Part shown: positions 1 through 59,877 of the stretch, piece after piece
Layout: the number at the start of each line of letters is the position of its first letter
Numbering within the stretch: the stretch's first letter is position 1
Sequence record: MW598459
Source: Escherichia phage vB_EcoM_RZ
DNA length: 64,000 bases
Reading direction: 5' to 3' (one strand)
Translations under genes and position numbers: made by a program
Notes under the pieces: generated by a model
Seen by the model: only the letters and a program-made list of their open reading frames with translations
Told to the model about the DNA's origin: nothing
Databases searched by the model: none

Positions 1-140
1 ATTTGCATCGCACTATCTGCATACTGGGTAAATTTACCATCTGTAGCAGAGGACATATTTGGGCCTAAACAGCCCATTAGTAATAGACTTAGAGAAAGTC
101 CTCGAATAAGGTCCATAAAGGACTCCTTATTGTTGGTCAT
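1..140 (-). CDS. partial lipoprotein-like ORF (5' part only; continues past window start)
   Basis: Minus-strand ATG at 140; N-terminus MTNNKESFMDLIRGLSLSLLLMGCLGP has a lipobox-like LMGC; reading frame runs off the window. Confidence 0.3.
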   Translation of the reverse strand, partial: MTNNKESFMDLIRGLSLSLLLMGCLGPNMSSATDGKFTQYADSAMQ

Positions 141-190
141 GATTACGCTTTGCAGCCTTAACATAGCGGAATACTAGTTAGTAACTGTAT

Positions 191-466
191 TTATAATCTT
201 TTAAATTTGAAACAATACATTGCAAATAAATCAGAAAAATGTCTATCAACCCATATTCTTTGCACTGGACTAGTAACAGTCAACATATAATGTGATTTTT
301 GTAAATTTATTCCATTTTTATTCGGGCATTCTTTATTAACAGAATGGTACGTGCTTGCTACTATTTCAATTTCCCTTTCATATCTCTCGCTATCTGTTTG
401 TGTGGGGATAAATGCAATCCCAGCAATAACAAAAATAGAGATATACGTCCAAACCTTGTATATCAT
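191..466 (-). CDS. small membrane-anchored protein (sits where T4 has rI next to tk; identity not established)
   Basis: 91-aa ORF with hydrophobic N-terminal helix WTYISIFVIAGIAFI followed by a Cys-containing soluble part; tightly packed upstream of tk. Confidence 0.45.
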   Translation of the reverse strand: MIYKVWTYISIFVIAGIAFIPTQTDSERYEREIEIVASTYHSVNKECPNKNGINLQKSHYMLTVTSPVQRIWVDRHFSDLFAMYCFKFKRL

Positions 467-473
467 GCGAACC

Positions 474-1046
474 TCAGCTTGTTAATTCGAGCCAATGTTT
501 CCTGCATAAAGATACGTACGATTCATTCCCACCGACTAACACTTGCTCGCCGTCCTTTACAGCAGCACCGTCGATTACTCGCGCGGTCATGGTTGCTTTC
601 CGGCCGCAATGACAGACGCCCTTTAATTCAACCAGTTTATCCGAAATAGCCAGAAGTCTGGCTGAACCGGGAAATAATTGACCCCGAAAATCTGTTCTTA
701 ACCCGTAACACATAACGGGGATATTGTAATTATCAACCACTTGAGCTAACTGGTCAATTTGCTCTGGTAACAAAAATTGAGCTTCATCGACCAGGACACA
801 ATGGATATCCTTTTGAGACTCGGCCCATTTATAGAATTCAAACAGGTTCATGTCGGCCGTTACCAGGTTTGCTTCCTGGCTAATACCAATACGTGATTTG
901 ATTTCAGATTCCGAGTCCCGATTATCAATAACAGGTTTTAGCAAAAGCACACTCATTCCACGCTCTTTATAGGAATAAGCTGCAGTCAGCAATGAAGCTG
1001 TTTTGCCTGCATTCATTGCTGCGTAATGATAAATTAAACTCGCCAT
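474..1046 (-). CDS. tk: thymidine kinase
   Basis: 190 aa; P-loop YAAMNAGKTASLL, CVLVDEAQFL, CYGLRTDFRG, C-terminal Zn-ribbon cysteines; closely resembles bacterial/T4 Tdk. Confidence 0.95.
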   Translation of the reverse strand: MASLIYHYAAMNAGKTASLLTAAYSYKERGMSVLLLKPVIDNRDSESEIKSRIGISQEANLVTADMNLFEFYKWAESQKDIHCVLVDEAQFLLPEQIDQLAQVVDNYNIPVMCYGLRTDFRGQLFPGSARLLAISDKLVELKGVCHCGRKATMTARVIDGAAVKDGEQVLVGGNESYVSLCRKHWLELTS

Positions 1047-1055
1047 ATCACCTTC

Positions 1056-1241
1056 TTAAAGCGTATTCACATAAGCTATTAATTCGTTTTCTTTCGCATC
1101 AAATCGATTAGCAAATTCTTCCTGATGTTCGGCATCTATCGGACCATATTCATCATAAAAGGCGTTTGCTTCCGTATGCTCATCCAAAAGCTCATGGATA
1201 AGCTCAAATAATCTACTTTTCTGACTAATGCTTAAACTCAT
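1056..1241 (-). CDS. hypothetical small acidic protein
   Basis: 61-aa ORF in tight operon spacing downstream of next gene. Confidence 0.45.
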   Translation of the reverse strand: MSLSISQKSRLFELIHELLDEHTEANAFYDEYGPIDAEHQEEFANRFDAKENELIAYVNTL

Positions 1242-1444
1242 TTCGGTTCACCATATCGCACAAATTTAGGATGTTCGCAATAACCAGAATGAAAACCTTC
1301 ACCCTTATGATTAGAACATCCTTTATTAGAACAGTACCACCAGTAATCATATTCGCAATTCATTTCATCATTGCATAAAGCTGCGATTACTGGCCATTCA
1401 CATTTTTCACATTTGGCCGTTTTAAGAATTCGGGCTTGGCTCAT
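1238..1444 (-). CDS. hypothetical Cys-rich small protein (possible Zn-binding)
   Basis: 68 aa with CEKCEW..CNDEMNCEY..CSNKGCSNH..CEH cysteine/histidine clusters; overlaps neighbours by 4 nt. Confidence 0.5.
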   Translation of the reverse strand: MSQARILKTAKCEKCEWPVIAALCNDEMNCEYDYWWYCSNKGCSNHKGEGFHSGYCEHPKFVRYGEPK

Positions 1445-1895
1445 AATCCACCACTATTAAATCAATATCAGGAGTAAACATGTCGATTAATTTAGAAACC
1501 TTATCCCAATCGCCGCCAGCAATACCACAACCAATACGAGGAATATAAATTACCGGTTTAAACAAAAGGGTTTCTGCCTGTAGATTTAATTCTATCATAC
1601 AATTTACTAAAGCGCCATAATCAAGATTAGGGCCCGGTTCATATTGGGTGTACAAATTATAGCACATACCAAACCCAGTAGGTTTATGTTTAAAAACAAT
1701 AGACATATCGCCGAGTTTTTCTCTGGAACCATATTCAGTAGTGGTTTTATCTATTTCTAAAACTTTTGGATAGGCCTTCGCCAACTGTCCAGCTACGCCA
1801 GAACCCATTGTGTGAAAGCAGTTGCAACCATGTGCAATAATATTGCCTTGAAGAAAGAGGGCGACGATATCGCCCTTAATATACTGGGTAATCAT
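1422..1895 (-). CDS. macro-domain (ADP-ribose binding/processing) protein
   Basis: 157 aa; motifs GDIVALFLQGNIIAHGCNC, GSGVAGQL, IPRIGCGIAGGDW are typical of macro domains. Confidence 0.7.
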   Translation of the reverse strand: MITQYIKGDIVALFLQGNIIAHGCNCFHTMGSGVAGQLAKAYPKVLEIDKTTTEYGSREKLGDMSIVFKHKPTGFGMCYNLYTQYEPGPNLDYGALVNCMIELNLQAETLLFKPVIYIPRIGCGIAGGDWDKVSKLIDMFTPDIDLIVVDYEPSPNS

Positions 1896-2251
1896 TTAGA
1901 GTTCAACCCTCTATTATATGAATCCACTAACCTGTCAACCATACTGGTGCAGGCCGCCTTATATTTTGCACTTGAAAGAATGCAATCCATTTCAAATAAT
2001 TTCTTTTCATATTTGTTGGATAATACATTCTTTTTCAAAAGTGTATGTTCAACATCATTTTGGCCATCTTTATATGCCGCGGTGAGCTTGGCGCTGAACT
2101 GGATTACACAATCCACATTGCTTGGTGCGCAATAATCTTTAGCCGTCCTCGTTGCATATTCTATGATGCTGTTGTTGTCATCGCTCTGTACTGAAGCTAT
2201 TCCTCCCATGCTGAATACTAACCCTATGGCTAAAGTGATAACTCTTACCAT
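1892..2251 (-). CDS. hypothetical secreted small protein
   Basis: 119 aa; N-terminal signal-peptide-like MVRVITLAIGLVFSMGGIASVQS; several Cys. Confidence 0.5.
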   Translation of the reverse strand: MVRVITLAIGLVFSMGGIASVQSDDNNSIIEYATRTAKDYCAPSNVDCVIQFSAKLTAAYKDGQNDVEHTLLKKNVLSNKYEKKLFEMDCILSSAKYKAACTSMVDRLVDSYNRGLNSK

Positions 2252-2253
2252 TT

Positions 2254-2796
2254 TTAATCCACCGTTTTTAATAGGCCTCGTGATTTTAAGTAGTTAGCTT
2301 TTTCTAGGACCTGTGAAGCATACGTATTACCAGCTTTCACATTCCATCCTGCGTTATATGATGATAGTGTTTTCCTTATATCCCCCTTATGAATATTCAA
2401 CCAGTATGAAAGCTCAATGTAAGCCCAGCGTGCACTGTTCTCTCTCTTGCTTATCATCTTGATTATTTCTTTATCTGTCATTGTCCACCCAACCTGTTTC
2501 ACGCGTTCGCGCACGGTTGGAAGATAATTTTGGAATATACCATATGCATGATGCTTATCTTTATTTAATCCAGTATTAATCCCAGCAGAACTCTCCTGCC
2601 AGGTTAAACCAGCCATGATATATCCCAAACCATTATGTTGGTGCGGATTTTCTTTGTACTTACCATTTTTCTGGAACTGTTCTCCAAACGCATAAGCATA
2701 TTGGAGGTTTTCCATTTGTTCATTACTGAAAGTAGGCTCTACGCTATGGGCAGACATACTAACTGTCAATAGTAAGGTGGCGATTACTTTTTTCAT
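2254..2796 (-). CDS. exported lytic transglycosylase-like (SLT domain) protein
   Basis: 180 aa; signal peptide MKKVIATLLLTVSMSAHS; SLT-like motifs LTWQESSAG (E-S), YGIFQ, SYNAGW. Confidence 0.6.
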   Translation of the reverse strand: MKKVIATLLLTVSMSAHSVEPTFSNEQMENLQYAYAFGEQFQKNGKYKENPHQHNGLGYIMAGLTWQESSAGINTGLNKDKHHAYGIFQNYLPTVRERVKQVGWTMTDKEIIKMISKRENSARWAYIELSYWLNIHKGDIRKTLSSYNAGWNVKAGNTYASQVLEKANYLKSRGLLKTVD

Positions 2797-2806
2797 GAAT
2801 TCCCCA

Positions 2807-3265
2807 TTAGATATAAATCACTTTTGTGCTAATTTTTCCTTCCAGACGATTAGAGTTAACAAACGCCATACGACAACACATGGTCGGAGACTTCCCAGGA
2901 ATAGCGGGGTTAACTGTCATTCCTAACCACAGGTTCTTGTCCGTGATTTCCAGACGAAGTGGACGGTAGTTCACATTCGGGTCAATTTGTGCTTCAACTT
3001 CCGGGAGTGGTTTCATCTCCAAGAATTCAACGATTTCTTTTACATGTGGTGTGATTTTTCCAAACAAGTCAAAAACATATTGTTCATCAATTTCACGTTG
3101 GATTGCACGGTCCAACAGGTGTGGACTGTACTTAATGAAGAATGCCTCAAGGCCTGCTTCTTTACAAGCCTTGTTGATAGCATTATTAATTTTGAGGAAC
3201 TCCGTTTCAAAAATGCGACGAAGTTTATTGCGGCGAATGTAAACACTTGAATCGATAGTAGTCAT
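2807..3265 (-). CDS. hypothetical protein
   Basis: Start placed at internal ATG (MTTIDSS) with SD AAGGAG; the longer track ORF would run through the upstream promoter. Confidence 0.5.
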   Translation of the reverse strand: MTTIDSSVYIRRNKLRRIFETEFLKINNAINKACKEAGLEAFFIKYSPHLLDRAIQREIDEQYVFDLFGKITPHVKEIVEFLEMKPLPEVEAQIDPNVNYRPLRLEITDKNLWLGMTVNPAIPGKSPTMCCRMAFVNSNRLEGKISTKVIYI

Positions 3266-3292
3266 GATTATCTCCTTTTGTTTGATGGGATA

Positions 3293-3321
3293 ATCATAAC
3301 TCATTTCAATCTGCTTGTACA

Positions 3322-3322
<1 letters not shown>
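3293..3322 (-). promoter_or_regulatory. T4-type early promoter cassette (-35 GTGTAC, 17 bp, -10 TTATGAT, leader TATCCCATCAAAC)
   Basis: Minus-strand reading GTGTAC-N17-TTATGAT-TATCCCATCAAACAAAAGGAG-ATG; same architecture as the other cassettes listed. Confidence 0.5.
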
Positions 3323-3901
<579 letters not shown>

Positions 3902-3905
<4 letters not shown>

Positions 3906-4120
3906 TTCACTTCCTCATCAGATGCAGTATCATATTCTACCAAACGAAGGCCATCATATCCGCCACGAACAGAGATATACGTACTCGGATAAACAATTTC
4001 TTTACCATTCCATTGGCCACCGTCCCAACATTCCATAAAGCCTTGTTCGCCCTGTTCATGGAACCAGTCAACAAACAGCTTCAGAGCTTCTTCAGAACCT
4101 TCAATTGTCAATTTAGACAT
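3902..4120 (-). CDS. hypothetical protein
   Basis: 72-aa ORF in operon packing. Confidence 0.45.
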
Positions 4121-6428: not shown

Positions 6429-6893
6429 TTATCCGAAAATTTGAGTCATTACCTTGTACATCGATTTGCCCATCACATACTGCCATTGACTCGGTTTAAT
6501 CAGAGCAAATGCATCGAACTCTGGAACCGAACTACCATCCGGGAAGGTATGATAGGCAGAGCATTTACTATGTCTGAACTGCTCATGCTCGACCGGAACC
6601 GTGTACAAAAACAGGTGAAGATTTTTGTTATCTGAATAACGGAATTCACCTAAGTCTTTTAAGAATGCTGGGTCGTATTGGGTAAACCCGGTTTCTTCTT
6701 CGGTTTCACGGATAGCCGCTTCAATCGGGGATTCACCAGCTTCAACATGACCCTTAGGGATGTCCCATTTGTGTGCAGGCATACCTGGTTTACGAGAACC
6801 AGTCACACGACCCATGAATAACTCTTTATCTTCAGTCATGAAAATAATGCCAGCAGATAATTCTTTCACCTTGTTTTTCTTACTCATCGTCAC
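6429..6893 (-). CDS. nudE: Nudix hydrolase
   Basis: 154 aa; Nudix box GHVEAGESPIEAAIRETEEETG; sits next to e as in T4. Confidence 0.8.
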   Translation of the reverse strand: MTMSKKNKVKELSAGIIFMTEDKELFMGRVTGSRKPGMPAHKWDIPKGHVEAGESPIEAAIRETEEETGFTQYDPAFLKDLGEFRYSDNKNLHLFLYTVPVEHEQFRHSKCSAYHTFPDGSSVPEFDAFALIKPSQWQYVMGKSMYKVMTQIFG

Positions 6894-12016: not shown

Positions 12017-12610
12017 TTACTTAAGTGAATTAATGTATTCTTCAATGTCAGCGGACGTGGTATCCACACCAACCTGTGGGCCTTTGAAGGTTTCAACACG
12101 CATCAGAGTGTCTTCAATATCAATCTTAGTCAATGCAGCGATTTCAACAACATCATCTGCAGTCGCAATACCCAGGGCAGATACCTTACGGGTTTCGCGG
12201 ATGTATTCCAGTTTAACAGCTAGTTCCTGACGAGAATCATCCAACTCTTTAACTTTCAATTTAATTTCATTACGCATTTCAACATAATCATCTGCCTTCT
12301 TACGAAGTTGTTTAGCAGTACGACGATACAGGAGACCCAGTTTAGCATGGACCTGGACATCCGCACCATCAGCAATCAGTTTGCGGATTTCACGCTCTTT
12401 TGAAGCGGCGAGTTGGTCTTTTTCATTCGCTAACTCACGGATGCGTTTTTCTTCATTAACCGACTTAACGTGGGCGGTCTGGAGCTCAGTAATCTTGTCA
12501 ATCAGGGTAGACGCTGCTTGAGTATATTGGTCTTCAATAGACAGATTTTTTGTCATTGCAGTACCCAGTTTGGAGCGGATGAATTCAACAAGTTTCTTTA
12601 AAGTATTCAT
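12017..12610 (-). CDS. hypothetical coiled-coil protein
   Basis: 197 aa, charged heptad-like K/E-rich sequence; own early promoter upstream. Confidence 0.55.
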
Positions 12611-12676
12611 GGTATTTCCTTCAGTTGGTTAATATTTTATTATCCAATGTTTTATTGTGTAACTCAGTATGGAATC

Positions 12677-12706
12677 ATTATGCCTTAAAGCAGGGGGCTT
12701 GTATAC
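12677..12706 (-). promoter_or_regulatory. T4-type early promoter cassette; -35 lies in a G5/C5 hairpin
   Basis: Minus strand GTATAC-N18-CATAAT-GATTCCATACTGAGTTACAC; hairpin GGGGGCTTGTATACCCCC (12693-12710) followed on plus by TTTTTT. Confidence 0.5.
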
Positions 12707-12718
12707 CCCCTTTTTTAA

Positions 12719-13162
12719 TTAAATTTCAAATTCTTTGCGGAAGTTGGAAGCATAAGACTGAACTGACGCTTTGTTGAATCCAAACTCACGCACAATCATA
12801 TCAATAACAGCTCTGCGAGCAGCACCATTAGACATATTAACAGTTTTGAACATATCATAGCATAAATCTTTGTTGCTCATACCGGAGCGTTTAGGTGCCT
12901 TACGCTCAGCTTTTGGTTCAGCTTTAGGAGTAGGTTTAACTTCTGGGTTAACCTGTCCATCATTCAGACCTTTAAAAATTTTACCTGCCAGAGTTGCCAG
13001 TTTAGCAGCTTCGCCACGAGTGATACCAAATACTGCCGGGTTAAATGAAATACCTTCAGCTGTCAGACGTTTGAAGAACATACGTGCTGCGGATTGTGCT
13101 TCAGCTTCAGAAGAGTTGTTTAATGCCAGTTTAACATACTTAACCAGTTTTGAAGTTTTCAT
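12719..13162 (-). CDS. hypothetical protein, paralog A (shared C-terminal VQSYASNFRK domain)
   Basis: Start at MKTSKLVKYV; C-terminal ~45 aa (NGAARRAVIDMIV..VQSYASNFRK) shared with ORF 13246-13671. Confidence 0.55.
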   Translation of the reverse strand: MKTSKLVKYVKLALNNSSEAEAQSAARMFFKRLTAEGISFNPAVFGITRGEAAKLATLAGKIFKGLNDGQVNPEVKPTPKAEPKAERKAPKRSGMSNKDLCYDMFKTVNMSNGAARRAVIDMIVREFGFNKASVQSYASNFRKEFEI

Positions 13163-15399: not shown

Positions 15400-15536
15400 A
15401 ACACCTCAAGTAAAATTAAGTAAAGTAAGTTTGATTAATAGCACATGCTATTATGAAAGATTCTTTGAGGGAAGAACCTTTGGTAATAGAGGGTACTTAT
15501 TAATAATAACACACAACTCTTAAAGCATATTACTTG

Positions 15537-54873: not shown

Positions 54874-54901
54874 ATTATACCACAATTTTATTTGAAGCAA
54901 A
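54874..54901 (-). promoter_or_regulatory. T4 middle (MotA) promoter for rnlB
   Basis: Minus strand TTTGCTTCA - 13 bp - TATAAT - GGTTCTAGACCCC. Confidence 0.55.
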
Positions 54902-59850: not shown

Positions 59851-59877
59851 ATTATACAGCCATAAAATTAAAGCATT
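59851..59877 (-). promoter_or_regulatory. T4 middle (MotA) promoter for uvsY
   Basis: Minus strand AATGCTTTA - 12 bp - TATAAT - GGTTCTAGACCC; box overlaps gp25 stop. Confidence 0.6.

Follow-up and report, generated by a model that had tools for sequence, protein, structure and literature searches.

A minus-strand open reading frame (ORF) at 1422..1895 of the 64,000-nucleotide stretch of Escherichia phage vB_EcoM_RZ (record MW598459) that was analysed here, referred to as the window, was identified from its sequence and position as the orthologue of phage T4 gene tk.4, which has been renamed adfM. Its product, Tk.4, is a macrodomain protein, and on balance it is probably a hydrolase that removes from phage DNA the ADP-ribose attached by the host toxin DarT2. 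The removal of defence-imposed ADP-ribosylation by phage macrodomains is a subject of current interest. The gene itself is an already annotated, well-conserved member of the T4 family and not a discovery; the outcome of the genome scan is that it should be labelled tk.4/adfM and not reported as new. What is added here is an invariant glutamine in the active site, the phage enzyme Adpp as the closest relative of proven activity, and the swapping of tk.4 alleles between phages.

The original prediction, made by reading the letters alone, had described a 157-amino-acid ORF at 1422-1895 carrying four macro-domain motifs. The description was exact, and all four motifs were found in the translation (GDIVALF at residues 8-14, IAHGCNC at 20-26, GSGVAGQL at 31-38 and IGCGIAGG at 121-128); the strand, which is minus, had not been stated. 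The label of an early region was reasonable, the gene being a member of the tk - vs - regB cluster, which runs on the minus strand. The accompanying remark that no macro-domain gene was known at this position in T4 proved wrong: T4 tk.4 (NP_049723, annotated in RefSeq as 'phosphatase; contains A1pp phosphatase motif') lies between tk.3 and vs, at the same position, and the novelty implied by the remark is therefore gone. The window protein was 58% identical to T4 Tk.4 over 153 of 157 amino acids (E 3e-70). Both genes are flanked by the tk cluster and vs, and they have in common an ATGA overlap, similar product lengths (155 amino acids in T4 vs 157 here) and the motifs HGCNC, GSGVAG and YTQ. 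In Shigella phage SP18 the counterpart carries the annotation tk.4, 'phosphatase', and encodes a protein with 97% identity to that of the window, while a 100% identical protein is already in GenBank from phage TH54.

Over its first 6.5 kb, the window shared 98.6% identity with Yersinia phage vB_YenM_P8 and 94% with SP18 (Gaprivervirus, Tevenvirinae), and by this sequence comparison it belongs to a T4-like (Gaprivervirus-like) phage. The genes in the window are ordered tk, tk.2, a small Cys-rich ORF, tk.4, vs, vs.1 and regB, followed by denV and e, and the order tk - tk.2 - (orf) - tk.4 - vs - vs.1 - regB is common to the window, SP18, RB5 and T4.

With the Pfam Macro family PF01661, whose gathering cut-off is 22 bits, Tk.4 scored 34.2 bits (E 2.8e-8) and aligned to positions 2-117 of the 118 in the profile; it matched PHROG 335 with an E-value of 9e-71. 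The protein database contained 775 homologues, and of 50,697 phage records 2759 were matched by tblastn. The AlphaFold2 model, for which 55 sequences were used, showed alternating strands and helices with a mean pLDDT of 95.3 and a pTM of 0.90, and it matched macrodomains, which bears out the earlier call of a macro-domain protein. When the model was compared with the PDB by Foldseek, the top 50 entries were all macrodomains or designs built on them (probability 1.00), with TARG1 first (E 2.6e-10, TM 0.74/0.82), followed by BT1257, Poa1p (E 1.2e-8) and DarG. The nearest PDB entries by sequence were Bacteroides BT1257 (2AFC/2FG1), human TARG1, yeast Poa1p, Streptomyces coelicolor SCO6735 (5E3B) and the DarG macrodomains (5M3I, 5M31), for which the Tk.4 family profile gave E-values from 3e-20 to 3e-10 (3e-20 for BT1257 and 4.5e-16 for SCO6735). 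TARG1, BT1257, Poa1p and DarG form the ALC1-like macrodomain class (PMC9411070), and the model places Tk.4 in this class as a three-layer alpha/beta/alpha macrodomain. Binding of ADP-ribose is predicted from the conserved binding loops (N25, G31-x-G33, G122-x-G124).

Two narrower assignments were rejected. The DarG equivalog NF048014 of NCBIfam gave 31.4 bits against a cut-off of 250, over profile positions 3-149 of 338 only, and the best match in PADLOC, also DarG, covered the macro half only and was far below its cut-off. Tk.4 has no second, C-terminal DarT-binding domain, and no darT adjoins the gene, the nearby genes being vs and the Cys-rich ORF. The O-acetyl-ADP-ribose deacetylase type (YmdB/MacroD), a name given to some homologues, reached an NCBIfam E-value of 0.076, and MacroD-type structures ranked below the ALC1-like set. 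The profile assignment to a subfamily that had been suggested at the outset thus led to the ALC1-like set with a Gln-type pattern and away from the DarG equivalog.

The anti-DarT2 function is favoured because T4 tk.4, the closer relative and positional orthologue, has a DarTG2 phenotype. In a 2025 preprint, tk.4, there renamed adfM, was the sole significant gene in a HIDEN-SEQ transposon screen of T4 on a DarTG2 host, and a clean T4 tk.4 knock-out was sensitised to DarTG2; that T4 AdfM strips ADP-ribose enzymatically from DNA is a proposal in the same text (10.1101/2025.11.20.689424). T4 without adfA and adfN is still DarTG2-resistant (PMC11825919), which fits tk.4 as the DarTG2-resistance gene. 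Of the two roles offered in the original prediction, the reversal of host-imposed ADP-ribosylation has accordingly gained ground from the knock-out described in that preprint (10.1101/2025.11.20.689424), whereas nothing was found in support of a tuning of the phage's own Alt, ModA and ModB marks. The function is also favoured by the lack of linkage between tk.4 and NARP1, and its chemistry is plausible since Gln84 is invariant and the Gln-type enzyme SCO6735 performs the DNA reaction. The best weak matches of Tk.4 in NCBIfam and PADLOC, both of them DarG, were counted on the same side, as was the fact that thymidine, the target of DarT2, is not modified by T-even phages. The replacement of alleles at tk.4, described below, is the pattern expected for a counter-defence gene. 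We infer that the window allele has the same anti-DarTG2 role as T4 tk.4.

Conservation in the active site was read from an alignment of 121 homologues. Residues H22, G23, N25, C26, G33, A35, N80, Y82, Q84, P119, G122, G124 and W130 were invariant or nearly so, and Gln84 was present in 121 of the 121. In the HMMER profile alignment, Y-T-Q of Tk.4 stood opposite I-T-K84 of TARG1, and the Gln opposite the Gln of BT1257; MAFFT L-INS-i placed YTQY opposite PTKK of both DarG proteins, ITKK of TARG1 and PTKD of PhiKZ gp104, a phage protein independently named AdfM. An hhalign comparison with PhiKZ AdfM put Q84 one column off K78, in a low-confidence stretch, and the MAFFT and HMMER alignments were preferred because they were consistent with each other and with a T-[KQ] motif. 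The catalytic Lys of DarG, TARG1 and PhiKZ AdfM is thus replaced by Gln84 in Tk.4, and Ala126 stands opposite D125 of TARG1, so that the Asp is missing as well. With Gln84/Ala126 instead of the Lys84/Asp125 of TARG1, the DarG/TARG1 chemistry cannot apply as such.

Asn25 aligned with N22 of DarG and N23 of PhiKZ AdfM; an N23A mutant of the latter was used in a de-ADP-ribosylation assay, in a study that names K78 of gp104 as catalytic (PMC13309987). Loop 2 aligned with PRIGCGLDRLQW of TARG1 and PRIGCGLAGGKW of BT1257. The original prediction had made the binding and catalytic residues its touchstone; Asn25 and both loops are kept, and the Lys of DarG and TARG1 has given way to an invariant Gln84, as in SCO6735. 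That enzyme has Gln85 at the catalytic-Lys position and lacks both catalytic residues of TARG1, yet efficiently removes thymidine-linked ADP-ribose from DNA; its Q85A mutant is inactive, and a water-mediated mechanism has been proposed (PMC9411070). The equivalence of Q84 and SCO6735 Q85 rests on the structure-based alignment with TARG1 K84 in the same study (PMC9411070). The Gln-type pattern of SCO6735 (N27, Q85, G128) has its counterpart in the invariant N25, Q84 and G122/G124, and on this comparison the Tk.4 family fits it.

From these features a course of events can be proposed. In a DarTG2 host, the freed DarT2 toxin would put ADP-ribose on thymidines of single-stranded DNA and so block phage replication. 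Tk.4, which may be synthesised alongside the vs product, before phage DNA replication or in the course of it, would hold the ADP-ribose moiety in its two conserved glycine-rich loops and cut the thymidine-ribose bond, yielding free ADP-ribose and restoring the base. Catalysis would probably take the Gln-type route of SCO6735, with Asn25, Gln84 and an activated water, and probably not the Lys route of DarG and TARG1. Tk.4 would then be in effect an orphan antitoxin without a DarT-binding domain.

Several points weigh against this function. The anti-DarTG2 evidence from T4 is genetic only and comes from a single preprint; the DarTG2 test was made on the T4 allele only, from which the window allele differs in 42% of residues. 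The diphosphate loop is IGCGIAGGDW in the window vs IGAGIGKGNW in T4. The T4 states at 126, 127 and 129 are rare in the family (G126 in 12, K127 in 4 and N129 in 11 of the 121 homologues), and the window loop, which is the family consensus, is also seen in BT1257 and in the phosphatase Adpp. The catalytic Lys of DarG is absent. In BLAST, the family is also far closer to Adpp (E 2e-25) than to PhiKZ AdfM, a biochemically proven DNA eraser (E 0.001).

Adpp, encoded by KNV71_gp137 of Vibrio phage Gary, is a Poa1p-like macrodomain protein of NARP1-AP, its gene situated between Adps and Namat; it dephosphorylates ADP-ribose-1''-phosphate, and NAD+ can thereby be rebuilt through the NARP1 pathway once the aRES defence has struck (10.64898/2026.01.28.702374). 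Among biochemically tested relatives it is the one closest in sequence to the window protein (39% identity), and a main activity of the Poa1p/Adpp kind, converting ADP-ribose-1''-phosphate to ADP-ribose as a sole or second role, has to be weighed, although we consider it unlikely. Its substrate could come from RES-domain NAD+ phosphorylases such as aRES, or as a by-product of RNA 2'-phosphate removal. Adpp shares the motifs of Tk.4, the Gln among them (YGQY), and its loop, IGCGLAGGDW, is nearly that of the window; Poa1p was among the best PDB matches, with its His23 aligned with His22 of Tk.4, and 'phosphatase' is the long-standing annotation in databases. Adpp differs in a Gly for the Thr before the Gln and in a 7-residue insertion after it. 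It also acts within an Adps-Adpp-Namat operon, whereas the neighbours of tk.4 are vs and the small Cys-rich ORF, and tblastn with the Gary proteins found no Adps or Namat homologue in the window. Without NARP1, the phage could not turn the product ADP-ribose back into NAD+, and it is the closer, syntenic T4 protein that has the DarTG2 phenotype. No NARP1 genes are annotated in the first 50 kb of SP18, a statement that comes from reading the annotation, with no tblastn.

A broader eraser, acting on RNA or protein ADP-ribosylation by other host toxins or on the phage's own Alt/ModA/ModB marks, seems to us quite improbable. The structural relatives TARG1 and SCO6735 do work on protein substrates as well, the close relative SP18 encodes ModA and ModB, and the two deeply diverged allele classes of tk.4 could mean different targets. 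The Alt/Mod marks, however, are arginine-linked, and no macrodomain is known to cleave this linkage. Among the defences covered by the quoted passages on the T4 screen, DarTG2 was the only one against which tk.4 scored (10.1101/2025.11.20.689424). We give very little credence to a neutralisation of DarT2 for which catalysis is not needed and which relies mainly on toxin binding or on the sequestration of molecules that contain ADP-ribose. Catalytically dead SCO6735 (Q85A), DarG and TARG1 do still inhibit DarT in vitro by interaction (PMC9411070), and the ICP1 factor AdfB acts through DarT binding. Tk.4, however, has no equivalent of the DarT-binding half of DarG, and N25, Q84 and the two glycine loops are strictly invariant over the 121 homologues, as is characteristic of a conserved active site and not of a variable binding surface. 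Removal of DarT2-imposed ADP-ribose from DNA is therefore retained as the favoured function of Tk.4.

The tk.4 locus stands out from its flanks in the pattern of divergence. Between T4 and RB5, which belong to the same genus, amino acid identity was 99.5% for Tk, 100% for Vs, 100% for RI.1 and 93% for Tk.3 but 58% for Tk.4, whereas between RB5 and the window it was 94% for Tk.4, 72% for Tk and 45% for Vs. At the DNA level, the window and RB5 were 87.6% identical over 1441-1942, which comprises tk.4 and the last ~47 bases of vs, and 66-78% identical in the flanks. The window-type allele was present at 90-95% identity in ~300 records of the phage collection. These discordant identities indicate, from the sequences compared, that tk.4 exists in two deeply diverged alleles, which are in circulation and are swapped as a cassette between T4-like genera, which makes the locus a hot spot of allele replacement. 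Cassette swapping is typical of genes in host conflict. It is possible, though we rate it as rather doubtful, that the Gln-type family of PHROG 335 is bifunctional or split between an ADP-ribose-1''-phosphate phosphatase directed against aRES (Adpp) and a thymidine-ADP-ribose DNA glycohydrolase directed against DarTG2 (T4 AdfM), the swapped allele classes of tk.4 countering different host systems. If so, the window allele, with its Adpp-like loop, might not counter DarTG2, or might counter another DarT2 variant or toxin instead.

Other named relatives place Tk.4 in its class. SCO6735 and BT1257 are ALC1-like, with Gln in place of the catalytic Lys; SCO6735 cleaves ADP-ribose from thymidine in DNA and confers protection against DarT (PMC9411070), as is proposed for Tk.4 by analogy. 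They differ in being cellular proteins of ~25% identity, SCO6735 with a longer mobile loop and BT1257 without known function. The DarG macrodomain (5M3I, 5M31) and PhiKZ AdfM share the fold class (TM ~0.74-0.77), and removal of DarT2 ADP-ribose would be common to them and Tk.4, but they have a catalytic Lys (K80 and K78, respectively) where Tk.4 has Gln, and DarG has its second domain for DarT binding. PhiKZ gp104 strips DarT2 ADP-ribose from oligonucleotides and protects chimalliviruses (PMC13309987), and like Tk.4 it is an orphan phage copy. Encoded at 12518-13006 of its locus, it resembles DarG (E 9e-25 to 5M3I) and is of the Lys type, and its match to window Tk.4 was marginal by BLAST, with a profile probability of 96%. 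T4 Tk.4 likewise matched Adpp (2001-2477 of the Gary locus) with an E-value of 2e-23 vs 0.005 for PhiKZ AdfM. By these sequence relations, the two proteins called AdfM, of T4 and PhiKZ, are from different branches of the ALC1-like class. TARG1 (C6orf130) and Poa1p, the best structural matches, share H-x-C-(N/S) and PRIGCG motifs with Tk.4; their identity is ~22%, TARG1 has the Lys84/Asp125 dyad, and Poa1p exceeds Tk.4 by 20 residues and contains an insertion.

The family occurs beside NARP1 genes in Thalassavirus phages and Pseudomonas phage Kassivere, and away from them in Vequintavirus A51.2 and Mooglevirus Sf14. In Kassivere (97-4016), two small genes separate the homologue from an Adps - x - Namat cluster upstream of it, a looser NARP1-AP arrangement. 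In Shigella phage Sf14 (3495-4289), a protein of 264 amino acids carries the homologous macrodomain as its N-terminal part; 2.5 kb upstream there is a gene for a polynucleotide kinase.

Table 1. Coordinates of tk.4 and of its features in the window
Feature	Coordinates	Strand	Remarks
tk.4 (adfM orthologue), coding sequence	1422..1895	minus	157 amino acids, ATG start; one macro domain, no other
vs/tk.4 ATGA overlap, 4 bases	1892..1895	minus	vs stop TGA 1892-1894, tk.4 start ATG 1893-1895; read from the sequence
Predicted ADP-ribose-binding loop 1, H22-A35 (HGCNCFHTMGSGVA)	1791..1832	minus	Asn25 codon 1821-1823; H22, G23, N25, C26, G33 and A35 invariant
Gln84 codon CAA	1644..1646	minus	position of the catalytic Lys of DarG (K80), TARG1 (K84) and PhiKZ AdfM (K78)
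Predicted diphosphate-binding loop 2, P119-W130 (PRIGCGIAGGDW)	1506..1541	minus	P119, G122, G124 and W130 invariant
Overlap of tk.4 3' end with the 68-amino-acid Cys-rich ORF (1238..1444), 23 bases	1422..1444	minus	from the ORF list; also the junction at which tk.3 of SP18 is missing

The sequence GAGGG lies 11-16 bases upstream of the tk.4 ATG. The 4-base overlap with vs was also found in T4, SP18 and RB5, and it suggests co-transcription and translational coupling of the two genes. Directly upstream of tk.4, sigma-70-like sites were no commoner than in shuffled sequence, with a weak internal match at 1906..1878, and no match to the MotA box was found on the minus strand near the gene. Because there is no convincing promoter immediately upstream, tk.4 is presumably expressed from promoters farther away, through vs. 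The MotA-box-like middle-promoter pattern TGCTTNA-N11-13-TANNNT occurred 8 times in the whole window vs 2.8 expected, and 8 was reached in 1 of 100 shuffles; examples on the minus strand lie at 15503-15527, 54874-54899 and 59851-59875, and the stretch just before tk.4 contains none.

SP18, T4 and RB5 have a gene tk.3 that the window and vB_YenM_P8 lack, and blastn showed ~203 bp missing relative to SP18 1940-2142. The junction falls at ~1441-1446 of the window, in the last codons of tk.4, and the C-terminus reads ..YEPSPNS here vs ..YEST.. in SP18. The adjoining minus-strand ORF is Cys-rich (CEKCEW...CNDEMNC...CSNKGCSNH...C) and possibly zinc-binding. It is hypothetical in SP18 (gp111), has a shorter start in vB_YenM_P8 and is 69% identical to a copy in RB5; no counterpart was found within the T4 stretch examined. 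On the other side of tk.4, vs (1892..2251, minus) encodes the valyl-tRNA synthetase modifier, and the window protein is only 45% identical to T4 Vs. In the preprint on T4 tk.4, vs is reported as the most strongly depleted T4 gene in minimal medium (10.1101/2025.11.20.689424).

Farther along the cluster, the mechanical ORF for regB (2807..3322, minus) starts from GTG and has 171 amino acids, whereas RegB of the relatives starts at an internal ATG at 3304 and has 165; read from this ATG, the protein is 100% identical to that of vB_YenM_P8. An ORF at the nudE position (6429..6893, minus), 4.5 kb from tk.4, is annotated as a Nudix hydrolase in SP18 and vB_YenM_P8. ADP-ribose is a substrate of T4 NudE according to a review (PMC9503650), and one may speculate that NudE could dispose of the ADP-ribose freed by Tk.4. 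Several product names in the vB_YenM_P8 record (PP693301.1) resemble errors of annotation transfer, for example 'DNA ligase' for a 98-amino-acid vs.7-like ORF, 'pyrimidine dimer DNA glycosylase' for a 72-amino-acid ORF, 'valyl-tRNA synthetase' for vs and 'head assembly GroEL cochaperone' for a 91-amino-acid ORF beside tk.

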